64,000 nucleotides of DNA from positions 1 through 64,000 of the IMG/VR virus record IMGVR_UViG_3300033994_001334; one strand, given 5' to 3'. This DNA comes from a virus (taxonomy: Duplodnaviria > Heunggongvirae > Uroviricota > Caudoviricetes). This document shows positions 2,904 through 20,959 of the stretch, one piece after another; the stretch's first letter is position 1; each line of letters opens with the position of its first letter. Under the pieces are notes generated by a model. It had not been told where the DNA came from. It saw nothing but the letters and a program-made list of their open reading frames with translations, and ran no database searches. The translations under genes were made by a program, and so were the position numbers.

Positions 2904-3683
2904 CTATTGTGGGAGGGACAATTTATTATTTCTAATAGAAGTTTTGATTTTCATCAATTTCTCAATATACCCGTTTCTTCTTAGTAATTTAAATGTTAGG
3001 TTCTCATATGAATACTCCCCACCACTTTCAAGTCCACTCTGTCTGAACTTTTTTATTTTTGATTTTAATTCGTTTAAATCTTTTGTGATGTCATTATCCT
3101 GTTCTGATTTTTCAGAAAGGTCGTCAATTAGTTTTGCGTATTCCTCACCTTTTTCAAGTATTATTTCATCATCAATTTTTGGATTTGATTTCTGAGGTTC
3201 AACAACCCATTCATTATTTAATATTGAATAAACACCAGATGATAGATGTTTATCATCAACATCCTGTACATACAATTCAACTTCATAATTTTTAATTGAG
3301 ATATCAGTTGAGGTATTCCAAAGTCGTCTTTTTAAATCAAAAAACTCTTTTACAATTGTCATATAAACCTCGGAACTTACTTTTCCTGAACTAAATTCAT
3401 CAAAATCTATTAATATGTGTATATCAACATCCGAATATTTTGACCAATTATAGTTTGCTAATGAACCGGTTAAAACAATGTCAAATACAAAAAAATCAAT
3501 ACCGATAAATTCTAAAAATTCATTAGATATTTCTAATAATTTTTCTCTTATTTCATCTTTTAGTTTGTGGTTACCATTATCATTTGAAAAAATAGTATCG
3601 GGCAAAGAATCTTTTGACCTAAAAGATTTAATAATCTCTTTGTCAACATCTTTATCTTCTATTAGTTCTTCAAATAAACTCAT
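2904..3683 (-). CDS. pol-beta-superfamily nucleotidyltransferase-fold protein
   Basis: LTGSLANYNWSKYSDVDIHILID fits the minimal NTase motif hG[GS]x9-13Dh[DE]h. 259 aa. Confidence 0.45.
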   Translation of the reverse strand: MSLFEELIEDKDVDKEIIKSFRSKDSLPDTIFSNDNGNHKLKDEIREKLLEISNEFLEFIGIDFFVFDIVLTGSLANYNWSKYSDVDIHILIDFDEFSSGKVSSEVYMTIVKEFFDLKRRLWNTSTDISIKNYEVELYVQDVDDKHLSSGVYSILNNEWVVEPQKSNPKIDDEIILEKGEEYAKLIDDLSEKSEQDNDITKDLNELKSKIKKFRQSGLESGGEYSYENLTFKLLRRNGYIEKLMKIKTSIRNNKLSLPQ

Positions 3684-3925
3684 TGTACCTTTTTATATTT
3701 AAATGTTCTCGAAATGTTTCCGTTAAAGTATTTTCCCTGTGATTCGGCCATTCTGAATTTAGTAAAAATTTCCCACGGAACTTTTTCATACTCATAAATA
3801 GAGCCGTTATTAAATTCCATCAATAGAGTTTCATCCTCTGTATTGAACTTTGCTGATTTAAGATTTGATGATGAGATAGTTACCTCAATCATCTTACCCT
3901 CAATTTTTTCTGAAATAATACCCAT
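3680..3925 (-). CDS. KTSC-domain protein (start re-called at MGIISEK…)
   Basis: …NGSIYEYEKVPWEIFTKFRMAESQGKYFNGNI resembles the KTSC/PF13619 pattern (Y.Y..VP…F..F…S.G.YFN..I). The longer 122-aa ORF in the track has an unlikely N-terminal extension. Confidence 0.45.
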   Translation of the reverse strand: MGIISEKIEGKMIEVTISSSNLKSAKFNTEDETLLMEFNNGSIYEYEKVPWEIFTKFRMAESQGKYFNGNISRTFKYKKVQ

Positions 3926-4062
3926 AATATAATTTTTGTGATAATATACACAATAAATATCAAATAAAAAACCAATAATGTTGACTACTTGTGAACGAAA
4001 AATTACCCATAACTTGTTTTTGAAACAAATTTTTAGTATCTTTACCAAAAATTATAAATAAT

Positions 4063-6075
4063 ATGTCAGTAGATTTTTTCGAAGAGGGACCGGTTTCAAA
4101 CCCTAAAAGAACCAAAAAAGGTTCAACTACACCCATTCTTGACAATTTTTCAAGAGACCTCAATAAGTTAGCTGAGGAAGGTAAAATTGACCCTGTTATT
4201 GGGAGAGATAAAGAAGTTAAACGAATAGCACAAATTCTTTCAAGAAAGAAGAAAAACAACGCAGTTATTGTTGGTGATGCTGGTGTGGGTAAATCCGCAT
4301 TAGTTGAAAAACTTGCGTTAATGATAGTAAAAGGTGATTGTCCAACTAATCTTTTAGATAAACGAATAATGTCACTTGATTTAACTTCATTAGTGGCGGG
4401 TACAAAGTATAGAGGACAATTTGAGGAGAGAATCAAAGCAATTTTAAATGAGTTACAAAACGAACCAAATGTTATTATATTCATTGATGAGTTACACACA
4501 ATGGTTGGTGCGGGTAATGCAAGTGGAGCAATGGATGCGGCTAATATACTTAAACCAGCATTAGCGAGAGGTGAAATGCAATGTATTGGTGCAACAACAT
4601 TTGATGAGTTTAAAAAACACATTGAAAAAGACGGAGCACTTGTTAGAAGATTCCAAAAAATTATTTTAAAAGAACCAACAATAGGTGAAACCACTCAGAT
4701 TTTGGATAATTTGAAGTCTTCATATGAATCATTCCATAAAGTACATTACGATGATGGGGTTATTGAAACAATTGTAAAATTATCTGACAGATATATAACC
4801 GATAGACAGTTTCCCGATAAAGCAATCGATGTAATGGATGAGTTGGGTTCAGATAAAAAAATTAATACAAAAATACCAGATTCAATTGAAAAATTGAAGA
4901 AGGAATCGGACGAAATAAAAGAAAGAAAAATCCAAGTAGTAAGAAGTCAAAATTATGAACAAGCAGCAAAATTAAGGGATGAAGAAAGAAAAGTAATTGC
5001 TAAATTGGACGATGAAAAACTTAAATGGCAGGAAAAACAAAAAGACAATAAAACACCAATTAGTGTTGATGATGTTTATGCTATTATATCTCAAATGACT
5101 GGTGTCCCAATAAGTAAATTGGATAGTAGAGAAACTGAAAATTTATTAAAAATTGATGAAAGGTTGAAATCTAAGGTAATTGGTCAAGATGATGCTATTG
5201 GTATTATTTCAAAGGCTATTAAAAGAAATAGAGTTGGTATTAAAGATGCGAATAAACCCATCGGTTCTTTTATCTTTTTAGGTTCTACCGGTGTGGGTAA
5301 AACATATCTCGCAAAATCAATTGCGGAAATTTTATTTGGTGACCCCGAAAAGGTTATTAGGGTTGACATGAGTGAATTCATGGAAAAACATAACGTATCA
5401 AGATTGATTGGTTCTCCTCCGGGTTATGTTGGATATGATGAAGGTGGTCAATTAACTGAGAAAATTAAAAACAACCCATTCTCTGTTGTTTTATTTGATG
5501 AGATTGAGAAAGCTCATAAAGACGTGTTCAATATTTTACTACAAATACTTGATGAGGGTCATCTAACCGATTCATTTGGTAGAAAAGTAAACTTTACAAA
5601 TACAATTATAATCATGACCTCAAATATTGGAGCTAAAAAGGTATCCGATTTTGGTGGAGGAGTTGGTTTTAACACATCATCAAGTGAGACTCAAAAATAT
5701 GAAGTTAGAAAGAGTATTATACAAAAATCACTAAAACAACAGTTTAATCCCGAATTTTTAAATAGGATTGACGATGTAATCTTGTTTAACAAATTGGATA
5801 AGGATGTTATGAATAAAATCATACAAATTGAATTAAATAAACTTGTTAATAGACTTAAAGAAAAGAACTATAACATTACTTTTGATAAAACAATAATTTC
5901 TCGTATTTCCGAACTTAATACACAGGAAGATTACGGTGCGAGACCAATTAAAAGAATTATTCAAAATCTTTGTGAGGATTTTTTAAGTGATGAAATCTTA
6001 AAGGGTACAATTAAAGAAAAAACTAACGTTACTTTAAAAATAAAAGACGGAGAAATAAAAATTTTTAAAAAATAG
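4063..6075 (+). CDS. ClpC/ClpB-like AAA+ chaperone with two nucleotide-binding domains
   Basis: Walker A1 GDAGVGKSA and Walker A2 GSTGVGKTY. Clp N-terminal signature IGRDKEVKRIAQILSRKKKNN. UVR-like mid-domain QNYEQAAKLRDEERKV (ClpC-type short M-domain). 670 aa. Confidence 0.85.
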   Translation: MSVDFFEEGPVSNPKRTKKGSTTPILDNFSRDLNKLAEEGKIDPVIGRDKEVKRIAQILSRKKKNNAVIVGDAGVGKSALVEKLALMIVKGDCPTNLLDKRIMSLDLTSLVAGTKYRGQFEERIKAILNELQNEPNVIIFIDELHTMVGAGNASGAMDAANILKPALARGEMQCIGATTFDEFKKHIEKDGALVRRFQKIILKEPTIGETTQILDNLKSSYESFHKVHYDDGVIETIVKLSDRYITDRQFPDKAIDVMDELGSDKKINTKIPDSIEKLKKESDEIKERKIQVVRSQNYEQAAKLRDEERKVIAKLDDEKLKWQEKQKDNKTPISVDDVYAIISQMTGVPISKLDSRETENLLKIDERLKSKVIGQDDAIGIISKAIKRNRVGIKDANKPIGSFIFLGSTGVGKTYLAKSIAEILFGDPEKVIRVDMSEFMEKHNVSRLIGSPPGYVGYDEGGQLTEKIKNNPFSVVLFDEIEKAHKDVFNILLQILDEGHLTDSFGRKVNFTNTIIIMTSNIGAKKVSDFGGGVGFNTSSSETQKYEVRKSIIQKSLKQQFNPEFLNRIDDVILFNKLDKDVMNKIIQIELNKLVNRLKEKNYNITFDKTIISRISELNTQEDYGARPIKRIIQNLCEDFLSDEILKGTIKEKTNVTLKIKDGEIKIFKK

Positions 6076-6194
6076 TATTAAATATTGAGATTTTTCAAAA
6101 AAGATATATATTTATATTTATACACATAGGAAATCTTTGCCGAAATCCTTTCGTTTTTTAGTCCGTGGCGTTGAAACCACAAAATGACCTTAAT

Positions 6195-6221
6195 CCCCAA
6201 CCACTCGTTGGGGATTTTTTA
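6195..6221 (+). terminator. rho-independent terminator (CCCCAAC cactc GTTGGGG + T-run)
   Basis: Perfect 7-bp GC-rich stem followed by TTTTTT. Confidence 0.55.
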
Positions 6222-6251: not shown

Positions 6252-6425
6252 ATGAGAAAATACGCATACTTTCTTGCATTTGTTGCTATGATTACAATGA
6301 GTGCATGTGGTTCAAACGAATCGACCACAGAAACAGGAAAAACAGATTCAACATCAGTTTCTATTGACACTACGGTAGTTCCAGTTATGGAGTCTACAGA
6401 GGTGTCAACTGATTCTGTTAACTAG
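6252..6425 (+). CDS. small lipoprotein (MRKYAYFLAFVAMITMSAC…)
   Basis: 57-aa ORF, shorter than the track cutoff. Signal peptide plus lipobox-like MSAC. A TAtaTTTG −7 box lies at 6234-6241. Confidence 0.4.
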   Translation: MRKYAYFLAFVAMITMSACGSNESTTETGKTDSTSVSIDTTVVPVMESTEVSTDSVN

Positions 6426-6513: not shown

Positions 6514-6933
6514 ATGGATATGATATATACAAAAGATTTAATACTATTAAGGGGAGTACCGGGTTCAGGTAAAACAACATTAGGTGAAGTTATCCTACAT
6601 ATGCCCAACAACCAACTAAAACCATTATCCGCCGATGATTACTTTATTGATGACTCAGGAAATTATAATTTTGATGCCTCAATTTTAAAAGAAGCACACA
6701 ATGACTGTCAACAAAGATGTTCTCATCTTATGCAGAACGATGTTATGAAAATTGTAGTTTCAAATACATTTACTCAGGAGTGGGAAATGAAACCATATTA
6801 TCAAATGGCCGAAAGATATGGTTATAGAGTACATAGTGTTATTGTTGAAAACAGACATGGTGGTATAAATGAACACAATGTACCAGAAGAAAAACTTTTA
6901 CAAATGAAAAACCGTTTTGAGGTAAAATTATAA
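6514..6933 (+). CDS. pnk: polynucleotide 5'-kinase-like P-loop kinase (kinase domain only)
   Basis: GVPGSGKTT Walker A. Layout LSADDYFID…VVSNTF…YGYRV parallels the T4 Pnk kinase domain (GCPGSGKST…RDDYR…ISDTNL…YGWKV). Start re-called at MDMIYTK. Confidence 0.55.
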   Translation: MDMIYTKDLILLRGVPGSGKTTLGEVILHMPNNQLKPLSADDYFIDDSGNYNFDASILKEAHNDCQQRCSHLMQNDVMKIVVSNTFTQEWEMKPYYQMAERYGYRVHSVIVENRHGGINEHNVPEEKLLQMKNRFEVKL

Positions 6934-6934
6934 A

Positions 6935-7978
6935 ATGATTGAGAAATTAGAACAATATCACAAAGATGGTTTGTTACAGAAACAAATCCACCCAACTCTT
7001 GACTTAACTATTTGGAATTATTCCCCAAAAGTTCAATACGAAAGATTGTGGGATGATATCACTATGCAATGTCGTGGATTGGTTACTAACAGTAAAGGTG
7101 AAATTGTTGCAAGACCATTCACTAAGTTTTTTAATTATGAAGAATTAACACCTGAAGAAATACCAAATGAATATTTTGATGTCTACGAAAAAATGGATGG
7201 TTCTTTGGGTATATTATTCAATTACCAAGGAGAGTGGGTATTATCAACAAGAGGTTCATTTACATCACCACAATCAATAGTTGGTTTTGAGATACTAAAA
7301 AAATATAAGTACAAATACCTTCCATCTGATTGTACATATCTTTTTGAAATAATTTATCCAGAAAACAGAATTGTTGTTGATTATGGTTCGGAAAAAAAAT
7401 TAGTTTTACTTGCCGTAATTCAAACCAACACAGGAGAGGAATATAATATCCACAATCAAGATTATGAATCGTTAGGTTTTAAAACAGTTACTATATATAA
7501 AACTTGGGGAGAGGGATATGATATACTAAAAAAAGAGATATCGAAAGATAAAGAAGGGTATGTAATTCGTTTTAAAAATGGTTTTCGTATGAAAATAAAA
7601 GGGGATGAGTATGTCCGTTTGCATCGAATATTGACCAACATATCTAACCGAGATATATGGGAGTATTTGAAAGATGGGAAACCTTTGGACGAGATACTTG
7701 ATAAAGTACCCGATGAATTTTATGATTGGGTTAAACAAACTAAAGAAGAGTTGTTAACTCAATTTGAAACATTAGATAAAGAATATCAATGGATATTCAA
7801 AATAATAAATAGGGTTCCGGGTATTGAAAATAGAGGTGTATTTGCATCATATGCGAAAATGTATAAGCACCCAAATTTATTATTTAACATGTTAGATGGT
7901 AAAGATTATTCAGAACAAATATGGAAATTACTATACCCACCGTACTCAAAACCATTTAATAAGAATGAAGAGAATTAG
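6935..7978 (+). CDS. rnlA: RNA ligase 1 (RnlA-like), ATP-dependent
   Basis: Motif I KMDGSL, matching T4 Rnl1 K99-EDGSL. 347 aa. 1-nt spacing from the kinase gene. Confidence 0.7.
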   Translation: MIEKLEQYHKDGLLQKQIHPTLDLTIWNYSPKVQYERLWDDITMQCRGLVTNSKGEIVARPFTKFFNYEELTPEEIPNEYFDVYEKMDGSLGILFNYQGEWVLSTRGSFTSPQSIVGFEILKKYKYKYLPSDCTYLFEIIYPENRIVVDYGSEKKLVLLAVIQTNTGEEYNIHNQDYESLGFKTVTIYKTWGEGYDILKKEISKDKEGYVIRFKNGFRMKIKGDEYVRLHRILTNISNRDIWEYLKDGKPLDEILDKVPDEFYDWVKQTKEELLTQFETLDKEYQWIFKIINRVPGIENRGVFASYAKMYKHPNLLFNMLDGKDYSEQIWKLLYPPYSKPFNKNEEN

Positions 7979-7994
7979 TAAAAAAAATTACACA

Positions 7995-8411
7995 ATGAAA
8001 AAAAGAATTTATTTGGATGACGTTAGAACCCCCATTTTAAAAGATGAATGGGTGATTGTTAGGAATTATGAAGAATTTGTAGATAAGATAACCGAAATAG
8101 GGTTAGAAAATATTGAATTGATTTCATTAGACCATGACTTAGGGGATAGTGCAATGAAAGAATGGCACAAAAATGTTTATCATAACTATACATTGAACTA
8201 TGATAATATTACCGAAAAGACGGGTATGGATTGCGTAAAATGGTTAGTTGAACAATGGATGGATGGTAAATCTGTTGTTGATGTTTTTGTACACTCAGCA
8301 AATGCTGTGGGTAGTGGAAATATGATGGGGTACATTAATAATTTTAGACACATCAATCACTTACCACAAAATTGTATTAGAGTTCAAATCGAACATACTG
8401 TTGAAAAATAA
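7995..8411 (+). CDS. hypothetical protein adjacent to the RNA-repair pair (…ISLDHDLGD…)
   Basis: In-frame ATG at 7995. The longer 7896 start overlaps rnlA. Confidence 0.4.
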   Translation: MKKRIYLDDVRTPILKDEWVIVRNYEEFVDKITEIGLENIELISLDHDLGDSAMKEWHKNVYHNYTLNYDNITEKTGMDCVKWLVEQWMDGKSVVDVFVHSANAVGSGNMMGYINNFRHINHLPQNCIRVQIEHTVEK

Positions 8412-8422: not shown

Positions 8423-8752
8423 ATGACAACAAAAAATAATGAAACCTCAATTAAAAAATTGAGTATTAAAGGAAAATATTCGGGATTTACAGATTTTTAC
8501 GATATCAATAAAGTTAAAATCTATAAGAACATAATAAATCTTTTTGGTAATCTTAAAAACAAAGAAAAAAATAATTTAATTTTGGTTTTATCGGCTAAAA
8601 TAATGGATTTAGATTGGGAAACGGAATTAAAATTTAATAGACAAGAAATTATAGTTCTAATTAGAGATTTAATACCATATTTTGAAAGTGTTGAAGATTA
8701 TGAAACCTGTGGAGAAATCCACAAACTATATCTAGAACTTTCTTCTATTTAG
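8423..8752 (+). CDS. hypothetical protein
   Basis: 109-aa ORF. Confidence 0.4.
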   Translation: MTTKNNETSIKKLSIKGKYSGFTDFYDINKVKIYKNIINLFGNLKNKEKNNLILVLSAKIMDLDWETELKFNRQEIIVLIRDLIPYFESVEDYETCGEIHKLYLELSSI

Positions 8753-11058
8753 TTTGATGATGACGATAAATCAACGTCACCTTTAACAATATATTTGATA
8801 TTCAATATCACCGAGCTTGTTGTGAAATTTATTACAAAAAACTCCACGGGGGTAAATGAATTAAAGTTTGAGATTGTCATAGAATTAAAATTTGATGCGG
8901 TGTACCAAAATACCTCATTATATGGGACTAATCCCGTTAAATTCGCACCAAGTAAATACGCGTCAGATATTGTTATCTTTCCGTCTTTGTTAATATCACC
9001 ACTCTTCATTCTTTGTCCACTTGTTAAAACTAAACCCGGACTTAATAAAGTTGGTACATTCTCGTTTTGAGATTCATTAAATACTAAATTAAAATCAGTA
9101 TTATTAACAACTCCCGTATATGTTGGAACTACTTTATATGTGGAATTATAAGTGGTCGGGTTTAATGTAAACGTTCCGGTTACACCAACGGTAACAGTTT
9201 GTAGAAGAGTCTCCGTAGTACCAACAACCAAATATAATTTAACCTGTGGTCTCGTAGATAGTCCAGATGGGATTGTAATTGTACCACTAATTGTTTCTGT
9301 TATAATTGACACCGTACCATTACTACTATACGCAAATCCACATGTACCACTTTGTAATTGTGCTCTGAATAATGTCTTTGAGGTAATATTAGTATAACTA
9401 TATGTTGATGCGGTATTTGTTATATCTATCCAATTGACACCGTCATTAGTTGACCTTTGCCATTTAACAATTGTACCACTATAACTACTTAATGTTAATG
9501 TACCTGAGTTTGTTGTACTTGTGTGAGTTGAGGATGACACACCACCACCAACAGGAGGTGTTCCCGATGTTACCGTAATTGTTTTTGAACTTGAGTTAAC
9601 CGCACTACCACAACTCGGTGTTTGTACCTCAACACGGTAGTAATATGTACCAGCCGAACTAATTGTTTCTGTTAAACTTGTTGTTGTGTTAGAGATATTA
9701 GTCCAATTCACATTGTCCGTTGAACGTTGCCATTTATTCACATTACCCTGTTGACCTGATAATGTTAATTCAACTTGACCACCCGCACATATAGAATTGT
9801 TTGCCGCAAATACTGTTCCCGATTTAGTTGGTTTTACGGTAACGTAAACACTTGAAGTTGCTAAACCTGAACAACTAACCGGACTTGATGAATTAACAAT
9901 TGCTCTGTAATATGTTGTTTTTGTTAAATTAGTTACCGTTATACTTGATGATGTACTCGAAATAGTAGTACCAGCAGTGAAAAAGTTATCAAAAGAAGAT
10001 TCCCATCTAACAACACTTCCAGTATAACTATTAAGAGTTAATGTTGTACTATTTGAACCCGAACAAACATTAATATTACCCCCACTAATAAACCCACTTG
10101 ATGCACCATTAATTTCTATGTTTCTTGTCAATATCGTTGTACTTGTTGTGATGTCTCCCGGCATGTCACCGTATTCACAAAGATAACCATTTAAGTTTGT
10201 ATTAGGTAAGTCATTCCATTGACCCGAATTTGCGGAATAAAATTGACCATAATGTTCACCACCCGAGTTGTTTGGTTCACCACCGGCCCATTTTGCATAT
10301 TGACCCGATACCGTGGTTGGACCTGAACCCCAATTACCATTTGAAAAGTTTGTTCCTTTTTCAGGTCCTGAAATCCAATGCCATTTACCTTCAACCGCCG
10401 ATTGATTAGTAAATGCCGTAGTTCCCTTGGCTGCGTTAACTAAACTTACTTCATCTGATGCACCAAACCAACAATCACTTGCCATCAAGCGCCAAACGAA
10501 ATTATTTTCGGCCTCAGAAGACATTGTTGCTAAATAACCGGCCCTACCAAAATAAGATTTAGTTTGGGCGGCAGTTACTGAATTTGTAAAAGTAATACTA
10601 CCTGAAACATATTCATAAAAGTGTTCCGTTAGAGGGTTATAGAATACAGTACCCGCAACAAATGTGATTCTTCTTTGTAATGCATAACAGGTAGATGTGG
10701 TTGACCTAAATTCAACCCCTCTTAGGATGGTTTCCCAATTTGATGCGGTGGTTGTACCATTAAAAACTAACACACCTGTGGTGTTATTAAATGTTGAAAC
10801 ACTAATACCCGAAGGTAATGTTGCGGTTGACCTTAATTGGTCACCGTTAGTACCACTTATATAACTCTGAGATATTTGAACTCTAAAACCTGTAATTGTT
10901 CCATTTGCGGTTAAAGTAACATTTGGGTCAACTTTTGTCCAAGTGTTGTGACTGACAGATAGTTTACCTGTACTTGATGTTCCAAGACTAACGGATGTTG
11001 ATTGTGAAAAACCTAAGACAGGTAATAATAAAAATAACACATATATTAGTTTTCTCAT
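8749..11058 (-). CDS. secreted C-type-lectin-domain protein with Ig-like/Cys-containing repeats and a dockerin-like Ca motif
   Basis: Signal peptide MRKLIYVLFLLLPVLGFSQ. C-type lectin core WHWISGPEKGT…WAGGEPNN…WNDLP…GYLCEY. Repeated …SCG/…TCGFAY modules. DINKDGKITISD. Confidence 0.6.
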   Translation of the reverse strand: MRKLIYVLFLLLPVLGFSQSTSVSLGTSSTGKLSVSHNTWTKVDPNVTLTANGTITGFRVQISQSYISGTNGDQLRSTATLPSGISVSTFNNTTGVLVFNGTTTASNWETILRGVEFRSTTSTCYALQRRITFVAGTVFYNPLTEHFYEYVSGSITFTNSVTAAQTKSYFGRAGYLATMSSEAENNFVWRLMASDCWFGASDEVSLVNAAKGTTAFTNQSAVEGKWHWISGPEKGTNFSNGNWGSGPTTVSGQYAKWAGGEPNNSGGEHYGQFYSANSGQWNDLPNTNLNGYLCEYGDMPGDITTSTTILTRNIEINGASSGFISGGNINVCSGSNSTTLTLNSYTGSVVRWESSFDNFFTAGTTISSTSSSITVTNLTKTTYYRAIVNSSSPVSCSGLATSSVYVTVKPTKSGTVFAANNSICAGGQVELTLSGQQGNVNKWQRSTDNVNWTNISNTTTSLTETISSAGTYYYRVEVQTPSCGSAVNSSSKTITVTSGTPPVGGGVSSSTHTSTTNSGTLTLSSYSGTIVKWQRSTNDGVNWIDITNTASTYSYTNITSKTLFRAQLQSGTCGFAYSSNGTVSIITETISGTITIPSGLSTRPQVKLYLVVGTTETLLQTVTVGVTGTFTLNPTTYNSTYKVVPTYTGVVNNTDFNLVFNESQNENVPTLLSPGLVLTSGQRMKSGDINKDGKITISDAYLLGANLTGLVPYNEVFWYTASNFNSMTISNFNSFTPVEFFVINFTTSSVILNIKYIVKGDVDLSSSSN

Positions 11059-12761
11059 AAATTTACTTTACTACCAATTAAAAAGAATGACAAAATTGGA
11101 AATTGAGGATTCGTACTCAAATTCGCTTTATAGTTTACATTTACTTTAAATCTTTTTGATACTTGATAATCAAAACCACTACCAATAAATCCACTAAAAT
11201 ATCTATCTGAAACGGTAACCTTTTCTTTTGTTGAATAAACTAATGGAGTTGATATTATATAAATTTCGGGAGATATTATTAATTTTTTATTTACTTTTAT
11301 TGGTCTTGTATAAAATGCCGTTATCGATGGTGAATAGTAACCACTTTTATCGGTTGCAATTACTGTTGCCGCCGCACTTACATTAAATCCGGTTATACCG
11401 TATTTTCCACCATTTAAAATCCCACTATAACCAACAAAACCTAAAAAATTACCGTATGTATAAACACCGGTTAAATTAACATTATGTACAAATTTTAATT
11501 TTTTACTTTTATTAAAGTGTATTTTGGTGTATCTCGCGGATAGTGCAAATTGTTCAAAATTTAACCATACCATACCCGTAACACCGTAACTTGATAGACC
11601 GGTCATAGATGACCTACTAGTTCCAACATTAATAATTGGGGTATATGATTTATTTAAATTTTGAGCGGATGTTATATCTGACGATACAATAATTGGATTA
11701 CTTCTAGCATTACCACCTGATTTACCGCTTTTACTACCTCCACTACCTGAAGTCCCACCCGAACCATTATCATTGTGTGCATCGTTGTTCATTGTTACGG
11801 TTGTTCCGACCTCTTCACCTTTTTGTGTTTTGGTGTCAGTTCCCGATGTTGTTCCCGAACCTCCATTATTACCGGAATTACCGGATGTGGAACTTCCACT
11901 TCCCGAACCCCCTGTAGAACCTGAACCACTAGAACCTCCGTTATTACCGGAATTACCGGATGAACCACTTCCACTTCCTGAACCTCCATTATTGCCGGAT
12001 GTGGAACTTCCACTTCCCGAACCCCCTGTAGAACCTGAACCACTAGAACCTCCGTTATTACCGGAACCGCCAGATGTACTACTTCCACTTCCTGAACCTA
12101 CAGGTGGCTGAGTCGTTGAACCTCCCCCTTGAGTTGAGTTACCTGAATTTGTAGACCCTCCACCATTTGTTGAAGTTCCACCTCCTTGTGAATTATTTGT
12201 TCCTCCATTTGGGTTACTAGTTCCTGAACTCGATTGGGATTCTCCTCCATTTTGATTTGAAGAAGAACCTGTCGAAGTCCCGTTAGTGTTATTTGAACCA
12301 TTACTTTTTTTCTTATTTGAATTATCATTATTACCCTTATCACCGGCATCATTACTACCAGAACTACTACTTGTTTCTGTATTTGTAGATTGGGGTTGAG
12401 AGGAAGACATAATACTACTAACAATAGATTGTACGGTATTACTAATAATTTGAGTTGTAATTTGATTTTGAGTTACCTGTCCTTGTTGTTGTGAACATGG
12501 TGATATTTTTCTAAAATCAGAATATGATTGGTTTATCCAATTAGCAAATGTGCCATTTGAAACATCGTTAGCATCAAAATTTCCGACTTTACCATAAAAA
12601 ATAATTGTTGTTTTTCCTGATTGTGTTGGTATACTAAATAGTGTAACTTCTTTAGTACATGGGTCAATAAAAGTATAAGTAATTATTTGGGCGTTAGCAT
12701 TTTGTCCGAATGACACGAAACATAAAACAAAAAAAATAATTCTAATTGACTTTAAAAACAT
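11055..12761 (-). CDS. outer-membrane beta-barrel-like protein with a long Ser/Gly/Asn-rich low-complexity linker
   Basis: Signal peptide …FGQNANAQ. About 300 aa of SGSGS/NNGG repeats. C-terminal ~230 aa of alternating hydrophobic beta-strand pattern. Confidence 0.5.
   Translation of the reverse strand: MFLKSIRIIFFVLCFVSFGQNANAQIITYTFIDPCTKEVTLFSIPTQSGKTTIIFYGKVGNFDANDVSNGTFANWINQSYSDFRKISPCSQQQGQVTQNQITTQIISNTVQSIVSSIMSSSQPQSTNTETSSSSGSNDAGDKGNNDNSNKKKSNGSNNTNGTSTGSSSNQNGGESQSSSGTSNPNGGTNNSQGGGTSTNGGGSTNSGNSTQGGGSTTQPPVGSGSGSSTSGGSGNNGGSSGSGSTGGSGSGSSTSGNNGGSGSGSGSSGNSGNNGGSSGSGSTGGSGSGSSTSGNSGNNGGSGTTSGTDTKTQKGEEVGTTVTMNNDAHNDNGSGGTSGSGGSKSGKSGGNARSNPIIVSSDITSAQNLNKSYTPIINVGTSRSSMTGLSSYGVTGMVWLNFEQFALSARYTKIHFNKSKKLKFVHNVNLTGVYTYGNFLGFVGYSGILNGGKYGITGFNVSAAATVIATDKSGYYSPSITAFYTRPIKVNKKLIISPEIYIISTPLVYSTKEKVTVSDRYFSGFIGSGFDYQVSKRFKVNVNYKANLSTNPQFPILSFFLIGSKVNL
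11795..12090. repeat. tandem ~66-bp repeats encoding (GSGSSTSGNSGNNGGSSGSGSTG)n
   Basis: Near-identical DNA units seen at 11.80-12.09 kb. They explain the spurious ORFs on both strands. Confidence 0.55.
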
Positions 12762-12780
12762 ATCAATAATAAATATTAAA

Positions 12781-12812
12781 AAGGGGGTTAATACCCCCTC
12801 TTTATTTTAAAA
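12781..12812. terminator. bidirectional hairpin (AAAGGGGGttaataCCCCCTCTTT)
   Basis: GC stem flanked by A- and T-runs, between convergent or adjacent genes. Confidence 0.4.
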
Positions 12813-12822
12813 AAAATTTTAT

Positions 12823-13602
12823 TTACTTGGGAAAAACTCCCTTTTTAATCATTCTAAGTAATATCCGACTACATGCTATATCTAAAGCTTTTTTAGTACT
12901 GATTCCGATAGTTGATTGGTTAAATTTAACCTCACTTAAATTATCGTCATTTATTAAACTTAGTTCTCTCACGGTCTTAGCTTCCCCTAATCCACTAGCC
13001 GCTATGATTTGACCCGTCTCCGCATCTGTAAATCTTATTTGAAGACCAAGTCTAGTGACCACGGTATTTTTAACACCGTTAGTCATATTAACAGTTTCAT
13101 CTTCACTTATTGAAAAATCATAAACTTCAATTGTAACAAAATAGTGCGCTAATCTAATTTTACCTCTACCGTCTAAAGTATCGGCCGATATTCCAGCTTG
13201 AGATGCTTGGAATTGTTTAACCATTCTGTTCTTAATCTCTGTTTTATCTTCAGTAAATGTGAATCTATTTAGGTTTTCTAAGTATTCTAACACAATGTTA
13301 GCAACACCTAGTCCAACCTTTTTTTCTTTTAATTCTGGATATTGTTCATATACCTCATCATTAATACCAATCTTTAAAATTTGTATTGGTATTTGTTTAC
13401 CATCGTAATTCATTAATGAATCAATATTAACACTAGTTTCAAAAGAAGCTTTATATTGTTCTGTTTGTGTTTTACCTATAGGTTGAGCATTTGCCGATAC
13501 CGATAGTAAAATCATAAATGTAACCCATAGTATGATTGTACCAATAATTATTGTGTACTCTTTTATTTTAGATGCGTTATTCATTGTCTTTAATTTTACC
13601 AC
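12823..13602 (-). CDS. CsgG/LpoB-like periplasmic protein
   Basis: N-terminal signal anchor. GLGVANIVLEYLENLNRFTFTEDKTEIKNRMVKQFQASQAGI resembles CsgG-family motifs. Weak call. Confidence 0.35.
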   Translation of the reverse strand: MVKLKTMNNASKIKEYTIIIGTIILWVTFMILLSVSANAQPIGKTQTEQYKASFETSVNIDSLMNYDGKQIPIQILKIGINDEVYEQYPELKEKKVGLGVANIVLEYLENLNRFTFTEDKTEIKNRMVKQFQASQAGISADTLDGRGKIRLAHYFVTIEVYDFSISEDETVNMTNGVKNTVVTRLGLQIRFTDAETGQIIAASGLGEAKTVRELSLINDDNLSEVKFNQSTIGISTKKALDIACSRILLRMIKKGVFPK

Positions 13603-14149
13603 ATTTTAAACATTCTAATTCACCGTCATTATCTTGGTCACCCCAAACATGTTCACATTGTCTATGTTCAAAATACTCATCAATTATACCGTCTCCGTCT
13701 GTATCATAACCGTCCATTGTTCCGTCTCCATCTTCATCAATTTCAACTTTTTTAATTTCGGTTGTTACCGAATCGGTTATTTGATTGTTTACATTTTCAA
13801 TTGGTAAAACAGACGGAGATGATGGTTTTGGAGAATCTGGAAAATCCGATGTACTAGACAAAGAAGTTCCGTCCTCTTCATCCATTTTTTGTACCAACAT
13901 TTTATCTTTATCGGTATCGCTAAACCAATAATCGATAATTTTACCATATGAACCAATAAATGCTCCTAATAATAACAAAAGTAATTCTTTCCATTCTCCT
14001 GCTATTTCAGATTTAGAAAATATAGCGAAGAACATCCCCCCTATGATAAACATAAATCCACCTAATACTAATGCAGTGATGTACCATCTTCTTTTCATCA
14101 TTGCATTTAACAATTCTTTAAACCCTGTTGGTGTTGTTTGATTACTCAT
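13577..14149 (-). CDS. membrane protein with Asp-rich Ca-binding (DxDxDG) repeats
   Basis: TM helix, then DEDGDGTMDGYDTDGDGIIDE and GDQDNDGELEC. Confidence 0.45.
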   Translation of the reverse strand: MSNQTTPTGFKELLNAMMKRRWYITALVLGGFMFIIGGMFFAIFSKSEIAGEWKELLLLLLGAFIGSYGKIIDYWFSDTDKDKMLVQKMDEEDGTSLSSTSDFPDSPKPSSPSVLPIENVNNQITDSVTTEIKKVEIDEDGDGTMDGYDTDGDGIIDEYFEHRQCEHVWGDQDNDGELECLKCGKIKDNE

Positions 14150-14172
14150 ATTTTTTTGTTTTTTTTAGTTTA

Positions 14173-14517
14173 TTACCATTTAGGTACTTCTTCTTTAAAT
14201 TCATCACCTTCTTTTTTCTTAGGTTTTGGTGATTCACTTTTTGCTGGTACTTCTTTTTCAATAACTCTTTCTTTAATTATTGTATTTGTACCACCACCGT
14301 TTGATTGTTGACTAGCATTACTGTTAGTAATATTAATAACAGGTGCCACTTGTTGTGTTGGAGCACTTTCTTTTACTTCCTCACCACCATTAAAAAAGGT
14401 AGTGGTTAACCAACCACCACCAGCCAAAATGGCCGTTGATAATGTTCCGATTAATGTTTTCTTTAATCCTGACCAAGTTCCATCATTGGTTTCAGGTGCG
14501 TTTGTTTCTTCACTCAT
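14173..14517 (-). CDS. hypothetical membrane protein
   Basis: 114-aa ORF with one TM segment. Confidence 0.4.
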   Translation of the reverse strand: MSEETNAPETNDGTWSGLKKTLIGTLSTAILAGGGWLTTTFFNGGEEVKESAPTQQVAPVINITNSNASQQSNGGGTNTIIKERVIEKEVPAKSESPKPKKKEGDEFKEEVPKW

Positions 14518-14521
14518 AGTT

Positions 14522-16420
14522 TTAGACTTTTACGAATTGTTTTGTTATTTGTTTTTGTTTATTGTTTAGTATCAAGAAATAATTACCATTATCTGATGCT
14601 GTCATATCGATTTGTTTGTACGAAACATTTGTCATACCGTTACCCGATATCTCACCTACAGTTTTAATTAATCTTCCTTGTGTATCATAAATACTTGCAA
14701 ATACAGACATATTTACGTCTGGAAACTTAACTTCAACTTCAAACCAACCGGTTGTTGGATTTGGTCTAATTAATGCGGTGATTTCTGTAATATCTAAACC
14801 AGAATTTGGTGACATTTTAAACATTAATGTTGTAACTTGACTTGTTAAAGCAATGTTATAATGGTCACCATTATTATCCGAAGCGTCCATTAATTTTCTT
14901 ACATATATGTTAGTCACAACATCGTTAGTACCGATAGGTGAGAATTTAAGTTTGAATGGTGTTGATGAACCAATAAGTGCTCCGCTAGTTTGGTTATTCA
15001 TACCACCAAATCTAACAGTACCATTTTGTTCATCATGAGTTACATATTGTAACCATGGGGTTTCTCCAAAATTAGATACGATTTCTTCAAATTTAACTTT
15101 TGTGTTATCGTATTTCATTTCAAATTGTAATCCATAAGCCATGTCACCATTTGTATTCACATTAAATGGAACATAAAGAGGTTGACCTGTTGGTGCATTT
15201 AGATTAGGAATAGTAACATCAAATTTACCTTTATAAATTGCTCTTACTATTGGACTACCAAACGCATCTAAAACTGGAGATGAATATGTTCTATCAACGT
15301 CACCTAATATATAATATTTGATATCTACGTTAATATTCGAAGTACCGACACTATCGTAAATGTAATTATTTCCGTTTACGTGGTTTGCCCATAGTGACCA
15401 TTGATTTGTACTTAAAACAAGTGAATCATAATCAGATTTACTCATTGCGTTAATTACAAAAGACGTATCTATTTTCTTTAAACCTGAAACCGATGCATAT
15501 ATTGAATATGGGTCACCACCATCAAGTTTTCCGTTTTTATTTATGTCACCAATTAAATACGATAAACCAAATTTTAAATATGAACGACTAAATGATTGGT
15601 TTACGTCTGTTTGAGTGTACTCATCATAAGTTTTTACCGCATCTGATATTGTAACGGCATAATCTCTAATTTGAGCCAAACTATCTGTTGGGAATCTAAG
15701 TTCAAGTTTATATTTTGTATTTTTATCTACATTAATTAATGTATAGTTACCTGTAGCGTCACATTGTGCTTCTGAAATAAATGCTCCCGTTGATGCTTTA
15801 GTACAGATAACTTTTGGTAATATGGTCATTGAAGGACCCAACCAAACTTTACCTGATATCACTAAGTTACCCATTAATTCGATGTGCATCTTTTGGTAAT
15901 CTAATGTTGCCACATTATCACCGATTGTTGTACCATCAAGCTTAAACATTCTAGCCCAGTTTACTGTGATACTGTCTGCCGCAAAATTTGGTACAACATT
16001 GTTAATGATAAATTTATTGTGGACGATATATCCATTAGTTGTTATTTTAGAACCACTCGAAAGAACTAAGTAATTTCTACCTACAGTCCAATTAGTATCT
16101 GAAGTGTAATTATAAATTCCCGTTGATGAATTATAAGAATCGTATTTGTAGTTATCGAATTTTTTAAACGATACAGCAGGTGTCATTGTACTAATACCGG
16201 CATCCACAGTTGTAGACAAATAACTGAACAATTGTTTCTTAAATTGAAAATCAATTTGAAACGTTCTAATGTCTTTAGATGTGTCTGGTTTATAGTAATA
16301 AGCGACATCTAATGTGTCACCTCTTCTTACGGTTGACATTTGTTGGAAGTGTCCAATTCCTTGAGCGAAAACACCTGCGGACATAAATGCAGATGTGATT
16401 AAAATTAGGATTTTTTTCAT
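14522..16420 (-). CDS. secreted protein with a T9SS C-terminal sorting domain
   Basis: Signal peptide MKKILILITSAFMSAGVFAQ. C-terminus …GNYFLILNNKQKQITKQFVKV is typical of type-A Por_Secre_tail. Confidence 0.6.
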   Translation of the reverse strand: MKKILILITSAFMSAGVFAQGIGHFQQMSTVRRGDTLDVAYYYKPDTSKDIRTFQIDFQFKKQLFSYLSTTVDAGISTMTPAVSFKKFDNYKYDSYNSSTGIYNYTSDTNWTVGRNYLVLSSGSKITTNGYIVHNKFIINNVVPNFAADSITVNWARMFKLDGTTIGDNVATLDYQKMHIELMGNLVISGKVWLGPSMTILPKVICTKASTGAFISEAQCDATGNYTLINVDKNTKYKLELRFPTDSLAQIRDYAVTISDAVKTYDEYTQTDVNQSFSRSYLKFGLSYLIGDINKNGKLDGGDPYSIYASVSGLKKIDTSFVINAMSKSDYDSLVLSTNQWSLWANHVNGNNYIYDSVGTSNINVDIKYYILGDVDRTYSSPVLDAFGSPIVRAIYKGKFDVTIPNLNAPTGQPLYVPFNVNTNGDMAYGLQFEMKYDNTKVKFEEIVSNFGETPWLQYVTHDEQNGTVRFGGMNNQTSGALIGSSTPFKLKFSPIGTNDVVTNIYVRKLMDASDNNGDHYNIALTSQVTTLMFKMSPNSGLDITEITALIRPNPTTGWFEVEVKFPDVNMSVFASIYDTQGRLIKTVGEISGNGMTNVSYKQIDMTASDNGNYFLILNNKQKQITKQFVKV

Positions 16421-17509: not shown

Positions 17510-17582
17510 GGGCTGATGGTATAGATGGCTAACACATGACATTTGCAATGTCAAGTCCCGAGTTCGAGGCTCGGTCGGTCCA
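17510..17582 (+). tRNA. tRNA-Ala(TGC)-like, G3:U70 present, D-arm weak
   Basis: Acceptor GGGCTGA/TCGGTCC. Anticodon stem TGACA/TGTCA with loop TTTGCAA. T-arm CCGAG-TTCGAGG-CTCGG. Confidence 0.5.
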
Positions 17583-17587
17583 CAAAC

Positions 17588-17661
17588 GGGATAAAAGCAC
17601 ATTAGGATGTGCAACCACTAGACGGTGGGAGGTATGGGTTCGAATCCCAAATATTCCACCA
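17588..17661 (+). tRNA. tRNA-like with atypical anticodon arm (4-bp CCAC/GTGG stem, 6-nt loop); encodes CCA
   Basis: Acceptor GGGATAA/ATATTCC. D-arm GCAC…GTGC. T-arm TGGG-TTCGAAT-CCCA. No canonical 5+7+5 anticodon arm. Confidence 0.3.
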
Positions 17662-17690
17662 AAGTGTTCTTTGACATATTGGTTTAACAC

Positions 17691-17763
17691 GGTGCGGTAG
17701 CTCAGTTGGTAGAGCACAGGACTGAAAATCCTGGTGTCGGCAGTTCGATTCTGCCCCGCACCA
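17691..17763 (+). tRNA. tRNA-Phe(GAA)
   Basis: GGTGCGG…CCGCACC. Anticodon stem CAGGA/TCCTG, loop CTGAAAA. Confidence 0.85.
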
Positions 17764-17768
17764 CATAT

Positions 17769-17842
17769 GACTTCGTAGCTCAGTTGGTTAGAGCACATCA
17801 CTTTTAATGATGGGGTCGACAGTTCGAATCTGTCCGGGGTCA
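17769..17842 (+). tRNA. tRNA-Lys(TTT)
   Basis: Anticodon stem CATCA/TGATG, loop CTTTTAA. T-arm GACAG-TTCGAAT-CTGTC. Confidence 0.85.
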
Positions 17843-18093
17843 CTTTAAAATTTAAATAACATGAAAAAAGAACAATCGCTGGACGCAATGTAGGCCGTTA
17901 TCGGAGGCTAAAAGAAATATCTGATAAAATTGGAACTAAACATCAAAGAAAACTTAAAAAATTTTCAGATGGGTTCAAAGAGAAATTCAATTTCTTTTTT
18001 AAAGTTAGAAAATCTGGTTTAATTGATTTTTGTGGTGAAAAAATTGAGGTTGAATTTAATGTAAATGGTCCTTGTGGTAGAGAATGTTTTAGA

Positions 18094-18363
18094 ATGTTCG
18101 AAGACGGTCAATTTAGTAAAGGAAAAAACAAAATTGAAACACGTCATCCAAACATTGTTAAAACGGTCATTCAAGGAAAAAAAGGATGGGGTCTTTGGGT
18201 AAATGAATGGTCCGAAGGAATATCCGAAGGTTCATTTACCAAACATGAAATTCTAAATGAATTTGAAATTCGAAACATAAAAATACCGGAATCGTTTAAA
18301 GAAGATTTTGAAAATAGAATTTGGAAAAAAAGAATTAATTATTTTAATAAAAATAAGATATAA
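18094..18363 (+). CDS. hypothetical small protein between tRNA islands
   Basis: 89-aa ORF. The frame is open upstream to 17860 with no ATG. Confidence 0.35.
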   Translation: MFEDGQFSKGKNKIETRHPNIVKTVIQGKKGWGLWVNEWSEGISEGSFTKHEILNEFEIRNIKIPESFKEDFENRIWKKRINYFNKNKI

Positions 18364-18369
18364 ATTCAT

Positions 18370-18443
18370 AGTTTCTTAGCTCAGTTGGTTAGAGCATCTG
18401 GTTTACATCCAGAGGGTCGTAGGTTCGAATCCTACAGGGACTA
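18370..18443 (+). tRNA. tRNA-Val(TAC)
   Basis: Loop TTTACAT. T-arm GTAGG-TTCGAAT-CCTAC. Confidence 0.85.
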
Positions 18444-18452
18444 CTAATATAC

Positions 18453-18523
18453 ACGGGTGTGGTGCAATGGTAGCATACGGGTCTCCAAAACCTTTGATGG
18501 GAGTTCGAATCTCTCCACCCGTG
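18453..18523 (+). tRNA. tRNA-Trp(CCA)
   Basis: Acceptor ACGGGTG/CACCCGT. Loop CTCCAAA. Confidence 0.7.
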
Positions 18524-18528
18524 CTAAT

Positions 18529-18600
18529 GGTTTCTTTGTGTAACGGAGAGCACGTAACGCTACGGACGTTAAAGTAAGGGTTCGAATCCTTTAGGAACTA
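18529..18600 (+). tRNA. tRNA-Arg(ACG)
   Basis: Anticodon stem TAACG/CGTTA, loop CTACGGA. Confidence 0.8.
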
Positions 18601-18607
18601 CAAATAA

Positions 18608-18677
18608 GGTCAGTTTGGTCGTGGAGGCCAGTTAGTCTGCAAAACTAACGGAGTTGGTTCGATTCCAACATTGACCT
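18608..18677 (+). tRNA. tRNA-Cys(GCA)
   Basis: Anticodon stem (G)TTAGT/ACTAA(C), loop CTGCAAA. T-arm GTTGG-TTCGATT-CCAAC. Confidence 0.75.
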
Positions 18678-18686
18678 CAAATACAT

Positions 18687-18764
18687 GGTGGACGTAGCTT
18701 AGTTGGTTAGAGCACCTGATTGTGGTTCAGGAGGTCATGAGTTCGATTCTCATCGTTCACACCA
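18687..18764 (+). tRNA. tRNA-His(GTG) with encoded G-1 and CCA
   Basis: Loop TTGTGGT. Extra 5' G before GTGGACG. Confidence 0.85.
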
Positions 18765-18767
18765 AAT

Positions 18768-18844
18768 TGGAATGTAGCTCAGTTGGTTAGAGCATCTCGC
18801 TGATACCGAGAAGGTCGATGGTTCGAGTCCATCCATTCCAACCA
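18768..18844 (+). tRNA. tRNA-Ile(GAT), CCA encoded
   Basis: TGGAATG…CATTCCA. Loop CTGATAC. Confidence 0.85.
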
Positions 18845-18849
18845 AACAT

Positions 18850-18921
18850 TGCGGGGTAGAGCAGTGGTAGCTCAACGGGCTCATAACCCGTAGGTCGTGG
18901 GTTCGACTCCCACCCCCGCAA
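18850..18921 (+). tRNA. tRNA-Met(CAT), initiator-like (GGG/CCC in anticodon stem)
   Basis: Anticodon stem ACGGG/CCCGT, loop CTCATAA. Confidence 0.75.
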
Positions 18922-18995
18922 CAAATTTTTAAAAAACATTTTATAATTCAAGATTTCTTTTGTATATTTGAAGTGTTCTTTGATTTAAAATACAT

Positions 18996-19068
18996 AGCGA
19001 GATAGTAGCAGCGGTAGCTCGCCAGGCTCATAACCTGGAGGTCGGGGGTTCGATTCCCTCTCTCGCAA
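18996..19068 (+). tRNA. tRNA-(CAT) second copy with 1:72 A:A mismatch (fMet-like or Ile-LAU)
   Basis: Acceptor aGCGAGA/TCTCGCa. Loop CTCATAA. 3-bp D-stem. Confidence 0.6.
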
Positions 19069-19077
19069 CAAAAATAA

Positions 19078-19151
19078 GCCTCCTTAGCTCAGTTGGCCAG
19101 AGCAACGCACTTGTAATGCGTGGGTCGGCGGTTCGAATCCGTCAGGAGGCT
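19078..19151 (+). tRNA. tRNA-Thr(TGT)
   Basis: GCCTCCT…AGGAGGC. Loop CTTGTAA. Confidence 0.85.
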
Positions 19152-19156
19152 CAATT

Positions 19157-19228
19157 GGTCTCATAGTTAATCGGCTATAATATTGCCCTGTCACGGCAAA
19201 GTGCCGGGTTCGATTCCCGGTGGGACCG
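19157..19228 (+). tRNA. tRNA-Asp(GTC)
   Basis: Anticodon stem TTGCC/GGCAA, loop CTGTCAC. Confidence 0.8.
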
Positions 19229-19450
19229 CAATGAGTAAGAGATACTCAATAGATTTGGTGCCGTTTCTTAACAAAGGTATAGTTGTCGCTTTCCACAACT
19301 TTAAAGAGGGGGTCGTCGGAGTATGGTCGTAACAAATCCACCGAGTATGTTTGATTTATGGTTTCATGTGGTAAGACACTAATGTGTTTGTTTTTAATAA
19401 AACTAAACCGTTAAAATCTACTTATCTGTAATCTCAGGGTAGGGAAAATT

Positions 19451-19541
<91 letters not shown>

Positions 19542-19584
19542 ACAATTATTGTTCTTTGACAAATTTAAAAACAACTTTAAAATT

Positions 19585-19890: not shown

Positions 19891-19926
19891 GACATAACTA
19901 AAGTTGAAGAACAATAATTGTTAAAT

Positions 19927-19998
19927 GGCCCTATCGTCTATCGGTTAGGACATCAGGTTTTCATCCTGAAAAGTCGGGTTCGACTCCCGGTGGGGCTA
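19927..19998 (+). tRNA. tRNA-Glu(TTC)
   Basis: Anticodon stem TCAGG/CCTGA, loop TTTTCAT. D-stem GTCT/GGAC. Confidence 0.75.
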
Positions 19999-20019
19999 CA
20001 AAATTTTAAATAAACCAGT

Positions 20020-20931: not shown

Positions 20932-20959
20932 AATAAACAAAACAAAAAAAACAAAAATT

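Follow-up and report, generated by a model that had tools for sequence, protein, structure and literature searches.

A kinase–RNA ligase pair beside a cREC gene in a large phage: a predicted T4-like RNA repair cassette lacking the T4 phosphatase domain

Introduction

Hosts often cut tRNA as a defence against phages, and phages respond with repair enzymes or with tRNAs of their own. The T4 pathway, in which Pnkp and Rnl1 counter PrrC, is to our knowledge the only phage repair pathway that has been dissected biochemically. Here, we analyse three consecutive genes, encoding a polynucleotide-kinase-like kinase, an RNA ligase of the Rnl1 family and a cREC protein, in positions 1 to 64,000 of the IMG/VR virus record IMGVR_UViG_3300033994_001334 (Caudoviricetes). 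This whole stretch of 64,000 nucleotides is hereafter called the window. We put at roughly 60% the probability that the kinase and the ligase act as a T4-like heal-and-seal pair in RNA repair, the missing HAD phosphatase being replaced by cREC, possibly with the aid of a metallophosphoesterase encoded elsewhere in the window. The four open reading frames (ORFs) concerned, with their lengths in amino acids (aa), are as follows.

6514–6933, plus strand: stand-alone polynucleotide-kinase-like P-loop kinase, 139 aa, with the P-loop at G14–T21 (GxPGSGKT) and Asp41 as candidate catalytic residue
6935–7978, plus strand: ATP-dependent RNA ligase of the Rnl1 family (T4 RnlA-like), 347 aa, with K86 in KMDGSL as predicted nucleophile
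7995–8411, plus strand: cREC protein (PF20274, 'cyclic-phosphate processing receiver'), 138 aa, predicted 3'-end healing phosphoesterase
30118–30837, plus strand: MPPED2-type binuclear metallophosphodiesterase, 239 aa, candidate 2',3'-cyclic phosphodiesterase, 22 kb from the cassette

Closest described systems

The cREC family was named by Iyer et al. (2021), who predicted for it a role in resolving the 2',3'-cyclic phosphates of RNA or of ADP-ribose derivatives (PMC7824862). In phages such as V5 and Mydo, Iyer et al. (2022) found linkage between a sirtuin, a T4-like ligase, cREC, a nucleotide kinase, MazG and, sometimes, a calcineurin-like phosphoesterase (PMC9503650). Our literature search found no paper later than 2022 that characterises cREC. 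The cassette belongs to a kind already predicted in the literature, and the healing of RNA 3' ends by cREC is part of that prediction. What is new here is the confident receiver fold of cREC with its invariant DHD motif, as well as the observation that the kinase–ligase pair behaves as a hypervariable, exchangeable island, absent from some relatives, between conserved Clp and cREC genes. Also new are the assignment of the distant metallophosphoesterase to the MPPED2 type and its frequent position beside cREC in this phage lineage.

With regard to T4 Pnkp and Rnl1, the window ligase shares the catalytic residues and has a homologous C-domain, the kinase has a polynucleotide-kinase fold with the catalytic Asp, and the same heal-then-seal logic is presumed. 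In contrast to T4 Pnkp, the kinase is a stand-alone protein of 139 aa, lacks the HAD domain and does not conserve T4 R38. The ligase, unlike T4 Rnl1, scores below the NCBIfam equivalog cut-off, and a cREC gene lies where a phosphatase would be expected.

The rV5-like (V5) and Mydo-like neighbourhoods also link a T4-like ligase, cREC and a small nucleotide kinase, with a calcineurin-like phosphoesterase encoded by the phage (PMC7824862, PMC9503650). They differ from the window, where the trio is collinear on one strand, the phosphoesterase is of the MPPED2 type and lies 22 kb away, and the host is from Bacteroidota. The rV5 cREC has a DND motif, which keeps the DxD but not the histidine, and has no insert, whereas the window cREC is longer, with a DHD motif and an EKTG insert. 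Compared with the sirtuin-centred neighbourhood (type 2 of Iyer et al. 2022), the window has the ligase, cREC and the kinase, but neither sirtuin (Sir2) nor MazG was found among the 58 window ORFs scanned; 2H, KptA (Tpt1) and Nudix proteins were likewise not found among these 58 ORFs, and the window covers only part of the phage genome.

The bacterial Pnkp/Hen1 systems, with which an analogy had been drawn in the original prediction, and the Pnkp1-Rnl-Hen1 systems offer a partial parallel. The window enzyme, like the bacterial one, is binuclear and is a candidate healer of the 2',3'-phosphate. The predicted fold of the kinase is nearest to the kinase domain of Clostridium thermocellum Pnkp (CthPnkp), and the Pnkp-like kinase-X-ligase fusion PHROG 8238 matches both the window kinase and the window ligase. 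The parallel has limits: no Hen1 homologue was recognised among the window ORFs scanned (two small methyltransferase ORFs within 45026–47109, in a sugar-modification cluster, were not examined further), and no kinase-phosphatase-ligase fusion was found in the window, where the proteins are separate rather than parts of a trifunctional polypeptide. Moreover, the ligase is of the Rnl1 type rather than Rnl4, and cREC has no counterpart in the bacterial systems.

Fungal and plant Trl1 also combines a kinase, the opening of a cyclic phosphate and an Rnl1-related adenylyltransferase for RNA>p and 5'-OH ends (PMC6379707). However, the ligase of Trl1 (Rnl6) differs in its C-domain and depends on a 2'-phosphate, which Tpt1 later removes. 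The window ligase aligns with the C-domain of Rnl1, and the window ORFs scanned yielded neither Tpt1/KptA nor a 2H enzyme.

Organisation of the cassette

All three ORFs were found on the plus strand, at the positions previously given for them. The kinase gene ends in ...AAA TTA TAA, with the stop at 6931–6933, and a single base separates it from the ligase ATG at 6935, which agrees with the spacing of 1 nt read earlier. The ligase stop (7976–7978) is followed after 16 bases by the cREC ATG at 7995. In some gene calls elsewhere, the cREC start is placed at 7965 (148 aa); the start at 7995 is favoured because most homologues are 135–138 aa long and begin with MKK.IYLDD. A strong terminator-like hairpin is present upstream of the kinase (6192–6216). 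No convincing terminator was found inside the kinase-ligase-cREC block, where the sole terminator-like hit is weak (7 pairs, 3 of them G-C, tail TGATTGTTAG) and falls inside the cREC coding sequence (8031–8052). Judged by sequence comparison, the family matches of the kinase, the ligase, cREC and the metallophosphoesterase are far beyond chance.

The RNA ligase

The ligase matches PF09511 (E 9.8e-21), phrog_562 over its full length (E 5.8e-72) and the T4 Rnl1 structures (E 3.6e-16), T4 Rnl1 being the only PDB family matched. With the ligase family profile, residues 43–346 align with residues 50–368 of T4 Rnl1, C-domain included (E 7.8e-20), and no other ligase clade in the PDB was matched at E<0.01. 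As this alignment reaches T4 residue 368, it takes in the C-terminal domain by which the Rnl1 clade is defined (PMC6379707) and to which tRNA specificity is attributed.

The KMDGSL sequence, originally proposed as motif I of an Rnl1-type ligase, is a genuine motif I, with K86 equivalent to T4 K99, and the other Rnl motifs are present as well. After correction of the T4 residue numbers for a one-residue chain offset, R47, K64, F66, K86, D88 and G89 of the ligase align with R54, K75, F77, K99, D101 and G102 of T4 Rnl1. Arg54, Lys75 and Phe76/77 are ATP-contacting residues of the N-terminal subdomain of the T4 enzyme (PMC6379707). Similarly, E138, E207, G208, K220, K222 and Y226 align with T4 E159, E227, G228, K240, K242 and Y246, and the residues of motifs I, III, IV and V (K86, E138, E207-G208 and K220/K222) are invariant in 30 ligase homologues. 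Among the essential T4 residues considered, taken in part from PMC6379707, the single exception is K119, which is conservatively changed to R106. On these sequence grounds, the ligase is classed as a divergent member of the Rnl1 family and not as a T4 equivalog.

The kinase

The kinase matches the Pfam family AAA_33 (E 1.4e-12), phrog_2071 'ATPase' (E 2.5e-38) and, more weakly, phrog_505 'polynucleotide kinase' (E 2.9e-8). Sequence searches of the PDB, with the single sequence and with the family profile, gave only P-loop-level matches. When aligned by hhalign with residues 1–152 of T4 Pnk (100% identical to 1ly1), the kinase gave a probability of 87% and an E of 3.9e-6, the P-loops being paired and D41 lying opposite the catalytic D35. 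An AF2 model (pLDDT 85) was compared with the PDB by Foldseek: the CthPnkp kinase domain came first, followed by T4 Pnkp, Pnkp1, two Mucorales RNA kinases and PSTK. The E values of the top matches (CthPnkp, T4 Pnkp, Pnkp1 and the Mucorales RNA kinases) range from 5e-6 to 3e-4, with TM-scores of only 0.56–0.67. Grouping with unrelated P-loop families was not observed. The model and the alignments point to a polynucleotide-kinase fold that groups with polynucleotide kinases, as had been proposed, and the corresponding activity is predicted.

The kinase has many homologues, which measure about 140 aa and show strong conservation. In 30 of them, the P-loop, S39-A-D41, N84-T-F-T, W90-E-M, E112-N-R-H and R134 are invariant. 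The kinase presumably also resembles the PNK-like domain of animal N4BP2/N4BP2L proteins. The ORF, the Pfam matches and the AF2 model all give a single domain of 139 aa, and the HAD (DxDxT) 3'-phosphatase domain of the T4 type is absent from it, as the original prediction stated. The same family, without a phosphatase domain, is contained in 626 sequenced phage records, in which an Rnl1 or phosphoesterase gene frequently overlaps or abuts the kinase gene; the question of how 3' ends are healed therefore extends to those phages.

The cREC protein

The third gene of the cassette, previously regarded as unknown, belongs to a named Pfam family, PF20274 cREC_REC (81.9 bits for a gathering cut-off of 27, E 5.6e-23), which comprises 1619 cluster representatives at E<=1e-3. 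Nine residues (D8, D46, H47, D48, T76, G77, H100, N103 and G106) are invariant in 54 cREC sequences that are 32–100% identical, and D9, R11, P13, S44, L49, S101 and N109 are near-invariant. The predicted fold is, with confidence, that of a receiver domain, with the acidic pocket and the DxD intact: D8/D9 after strand 1 and D46 after strand 3 are placed as the acidic pair and the phospho-acceptor of receivers. The relationship with receivers is structural only, since the cREC profile gave no significant hhalign match to CheY. The D46-x-D48 spacing would seem to recall the HAD motif of T4 Pnkp (D165/D167).

The earlier suggestion that this adjacent ORF supplies the 3'-healing function matches what has been predicted for the cREC family (PMC7824862, PMC9503650). 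In the cassette, cREC is the leading candidate for this step. It is compact and confidently folded, with clear invariant residues, which makes it directly testable, and the value of the cassette is that of a compact, tractable test case for cREC. If cREC is catalytic, it would represent a receiver domain that works as an enzyme instead of a phosphorylation-controlled switch.

The metallophosphoesterase and the neighbours of cREC

The distant metallophosphoesterase matches PF00149 (E 9.6e-15) and, over 229 residues, the mammalian MPPED2 structures (E 8.4e-49), with all the metal-binding motifs (DxH, GD, GNHD, H and GHxH) in register. Members of this class act as phosphodiesterases, have no detectable monoesterase activity and prefer 2',3'-cAMP, which they convert to 2'- and 3'-AMP (PMC10547211). 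This suggests a division of labour, in which the metallophosphoesterase would open the cyclic phosphate and another enzyme would remove the monoester.

The regions of 8 kb on either side of cREC were compared in two clades of related loci: a first clade of 80 viral loci, in which cREC is 73–100% identical to that of the window, and a second clade of 58 loci, in which it is about 40% identical. In 37 of the 58 second-clade loci, an orthologue of the metallophosphoesterase (46–52% identical, E ~1e-60) lies 130–750 bp upstream of cREC on the same strand, with small variable ORFs in between; in another 16 of the 58, cREC lies between GroEL and a clamp loader. In the first clade, an orthologue is near cREC in roughly 17 of the 80 loci. 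The metallophosphoesterase is the commonest neighbour of cREC in related phages, which strengthens its candidacy, raised in the original prediction, as an alternative supplier of the 3'-healing activity. The locus points to an MPPED2-type phosphodiesterase as a specific partner of cREC. A universal co-occurrence at the genome level was rejected: among isolate phages, 84 records have the enzyme and 119 have cREC, but only a handful have both.

Within the first clade, the order nucleotidyltransferase-KTSC-Clp-kinase-ligase-cREC-orf8423 is found in about 35 of the 80 loci, and the kinase-ligase-cREC order is kept in 13 of the 20 loci closest in identity to the window cREC (L005–L024). Inside this shared block, identity to the window is 55–95% for the kinase and 56–96% for the ligase, versus 84–98% for Clp and 78–100% for cREC. 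At 88% identity, five allele classes of the kinase, six of the ligase and two of cREC are observed, in mixed combinations. The kinase–ligase pair behaves as an exchangeable island, and a part in the conflict with host nucleases would suit both its mobility and its diversity.

The other close cREC genes are found in about 15 further neighbourhood types, several of which contain a PF09414 RNA ligase, the kinase or one of two metallophosphoesterase families, and some of which contain none of these. Altogether, about 10 of the approximately 16 neighbourhood types of close relatives have an RNA ligase (Rnl1 type or PF09414), this kinase or a metallophosphoesterase within 8 kb. Outside these clades, phages of Aeromonas and Pseudomonas and rV5-like phages also have the kinase gene next to an Rnl1 gene, and a phosphoesterase often accompanies the two. 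In the rV5-like phage NHEP1, MazG-Sir2-cREC-Rnl1 faces kinase-phosphoesterase next to tRNA genes, the cREC being 29% identical to that of the window (E 1e-7).

Predicted function and alternatives

The analysis establishes family memberships, the conservation of catalytic residues, folds and a recurrent linkage of the genes; the proposed mechanism joins enzymatic activities, an RNA substrate and a division of labour that we infer. The substrate is most probably tRNA, cut by a host ribonuclease that leaves a 5'-OH and a 2',3'-cyclic phosphate. The kinase would phosphorylate the 5'-OH end, a phosphoesterase would convert the 2',3'-cyclic phosphate to 2'-OH/3'-OH, and the Rnl1-type ligase would be adenylylated on K86 and transfer AMP to the 5'-phosphate, after which the break would be sealed. 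The kinase lacks a HAD phosphatase domain, and 3'-end healing is most likely performed by the co-transcribed cREC, possibly together with the MPPED2-type enzyme.

A more specific form of this mechanism, which we regard as tentative, is that cREC acts as an aspartyl-phosphate phosphomonoesterase. The MPPED2-type enzyme would open RNA>p and cREC would remove the resulting 2'- or 3'-phosphate, the two proteins jointly substituting for the HAD domain. D46-x-D48, at the phospho-acceptor position of the receiver, may mimic the DxD of HAD phosphatases. The published prediction is a different one: there, the metal-independent cyclic phosphodiesterase is cREC itself (PMC7824862, PMC9503650).

Several observations weigh against RNA repair by the cassette as proposed. 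The ligase scores 78.3 bits against NCBIfam TIGR02308, for which the T4 RnlA equivalog cut-off is 242. In the kinase, the hhalign and homologue alignments show an invariant Phe (F44) where T4 Pnk has R38, and R126 has no clear counterpart, the invariant R114 being paired with T4 R122. In T4 Pnk, R38 and R126 are the essential acceptor- and donor-binding arginines, so that the acceptor specificity of the kinase is uncertain. At two loci (L051 and L052), Clp, a small ORF, cREC and orf8423 follow one another and the kinase and ligase are cleanly absent, and in many relatives cREC, at 73–88% identity, has no kinase or ligase within 8 kb. A strict three-gene unit was rejected on account of such relatives. 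As cREC persists where the pair is absent, it has a role that does not require the pair, and this function may be additional to repair or even primary. Finally, the cREC family is described as experimentally uncharacterized, jumbo-phage cREC is often fused to Nudix, and action on ADP-ribose-derived cyclic phosphates has also been predicted (PMC9503650).

A first alternative is a role of cREC outside RNA repair, in which it would degrade small cyclic-phosphate or ADP-ribose-derived metabolites or immune second messengers, possibly with the MPPED2-type enzyme, the kinase–ligase pair having been inserted beside a resident cREC. Such a role would agree with the low number of cREC allele classes relative to those of the pair, with the many relatives that have cREC alone, including L051 and L052, and with the second clade, where cREC is next to the metallophosphoesterase, or between GroEL and a clamp loader, with no kinase or ligase near. 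The activity of MPPED-class enzymes on free cyclic nucleotides (PMC10547211) and the Nudix fusions, with the predicted role on ADPr>p (PMC9503650), point in the same direction. Nevertheless, several arrangements tie cREC to two RNA ligase families, the kinase and two metallophosphoesterase families, the window genes are tightly spaced on one strand, and the pair has no other 3'-end healing enzyme nearby. We consider this role outside repair possible, and clearly less probable than repair.

It is also conceivable that the metallophosphoesterase alone heals the 3' end, while cREC, as a non-catalytic receiver-like partner, senses cyclic-phosphate ends or regulates the kinase or ligase. Regulation is the classical function of receiver domains, the kinase–Rnl1 pairs of other phages can lie beside a phosphoesterase without an adjacent cREC, and bacterial Pnkp uses a binuclear metallophosphoesterase for the 3' step (PMC3675462). 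However, since the MPPED class has no detectable monoesterase activity (PMC10547211), a second enzyme would still be needed to produce a 3'-OH. Furthermore, the catalytic-looking residues D8, D46, H47, D48, T76, H100 and N103 are invariant across cREC homologues that are only 32–50% identical, and, in its published description, cREC never occurs in association with histidine kinases (PMC7824862). Consistent with that description, the neighbours of cREC are RNA ligases, the kinase and metallophosphoesterases, and no histidine kinase was found among the window ORFs scanned or the cREC-neighbour clusters sent to Pfam. A purely regulatory cREC therefore appears unlikely.

A function of the pair other than the countering of host nucleases, for instance in processing or maturing the 25 tRNAs of the phage itself or its intron-containing transcripts, or in tail-fibre attachment as by T4 gp63, is suggested by the words 'tail fiber protein attachment catalyst' in the PHROG family name and by the large tRNA array and group I intron of the phage, but it is very improbable: tail-fibre attachment is known as a property of the T4 protein and needs no kinase, group I splicing requires no ligase, and an accessory function in conflict accounts better than an essential maturation step for the high allelic diversity of the pair and for its presence in some loci and absence from others.

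Flanking genes

One further ORF follows cREC closely.

8423–8752, plus strand: conserved ORF of 109 aa downstream of cREC, uncertain member of the system

This ORF follows cREC in every syntenic locus (57–97% identity), including L051 and L052, where the kinase and ligase are absent. It has no Pfam or PHROG family match; by eye, its C-terminus (EDYETCGEIHKLYLEL) resembles a UVR motif. Beyond it, the unit is bounded by a convergent gene.

Just upstream of the cassette, a 670-aa two-ring AAA+ protein resembling ClpA/ClpB/ClpC, with a UVR motif, is encoded at 4063–6075, and a putative ClpP-like gene is near cREC in some related contigs. Between Clp and the kinase lies an ORF of 57 aa (6252–6425) with a lipoprotein-like signal sequence; it is kept in a dozen related loci, also beside cREC where the kinase and ligase are absent. 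Further upstream, the minus strand (2904–4048) encodes a KTSC-domain protein and a nucleotidyltransferase of the Pol-beta type (weak match to PF01909; phrog_36119), both syntenic with the cassette. An RNA-ligase-associated family of nucleotidyltransferases (RlaP) is known; the window nucleotidyltransferase gave no match to it, and its PDB search was empty.

The phage and the remainder of the window

The window derives from a large AT-rich phage, whose closest isolate by DNA comparison is Flavobacterium phage immuto, and it shares proteins that are 75–100% identical with many IMG/VR viral contigs. Type IX secretion sorting domains and SprB repeats are present in proteins encoded in the window, and the host is from Bacteroidota. 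On the minus strand at 8749–16420, several large Ser/Thr/Asn-rich proteins without a family match are encoded; one protein of this region has a cohesin domain and a C-terminal type IX secretion sorting domain, which also points to a Bacteroidota host.

The tRNA genes of the window are grouped in one array.

17510–23505, plus strand: 25 tRNA genes in one array, with each of the 20 amino acids represented, found with ARAGORN and Rfam

The original prediction drew attention to a tRNA-Lys(TTT) gene and to tRNA-Arg genes as targets of anticodon nucleases. These genes are indeed present, tRNA-Lys(TTT) and two tRNA-Arg genes making up 3 of the 25. Because the set covers all 20 amino acids, singling them out is selective, and we rejected them as specific evidence. 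The anticodons of the array mostly read A/U-ending codons, and three genes are of the tRNA-Met type. The array provides a context for the cassette and may be a second way of protecting translation.

Next to the array, an RNase H-like ORF (PF04308, 23465–23992) lies directly upstream of a gene for SmpB (23992–24417; 147 bits for an NCBIfam equivalog cut-off of 119). No tmRNA gene was found anywhere in the 64 kb window by ARAGORN or Rfam. A group I intron is located at 31268–31482 on the plus strand (Rfam RF00028, 65.8 bits over the full model), where no long host ORF is evident; a Cys-rich ORF of 173 aa without a Pfam match adjoins it on the minus strand (31501–32022). Finally, a cluster of sugar- or modification-type enzymes occupies the minus strand at 39199–51240. 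It encodes a 1031-aa fusion of FkbM methyltransferase, HtrL and GT2, a 902-aa carbamoyltransferase, two GlcNAc-transferase-like proteins and small methyltransferases.

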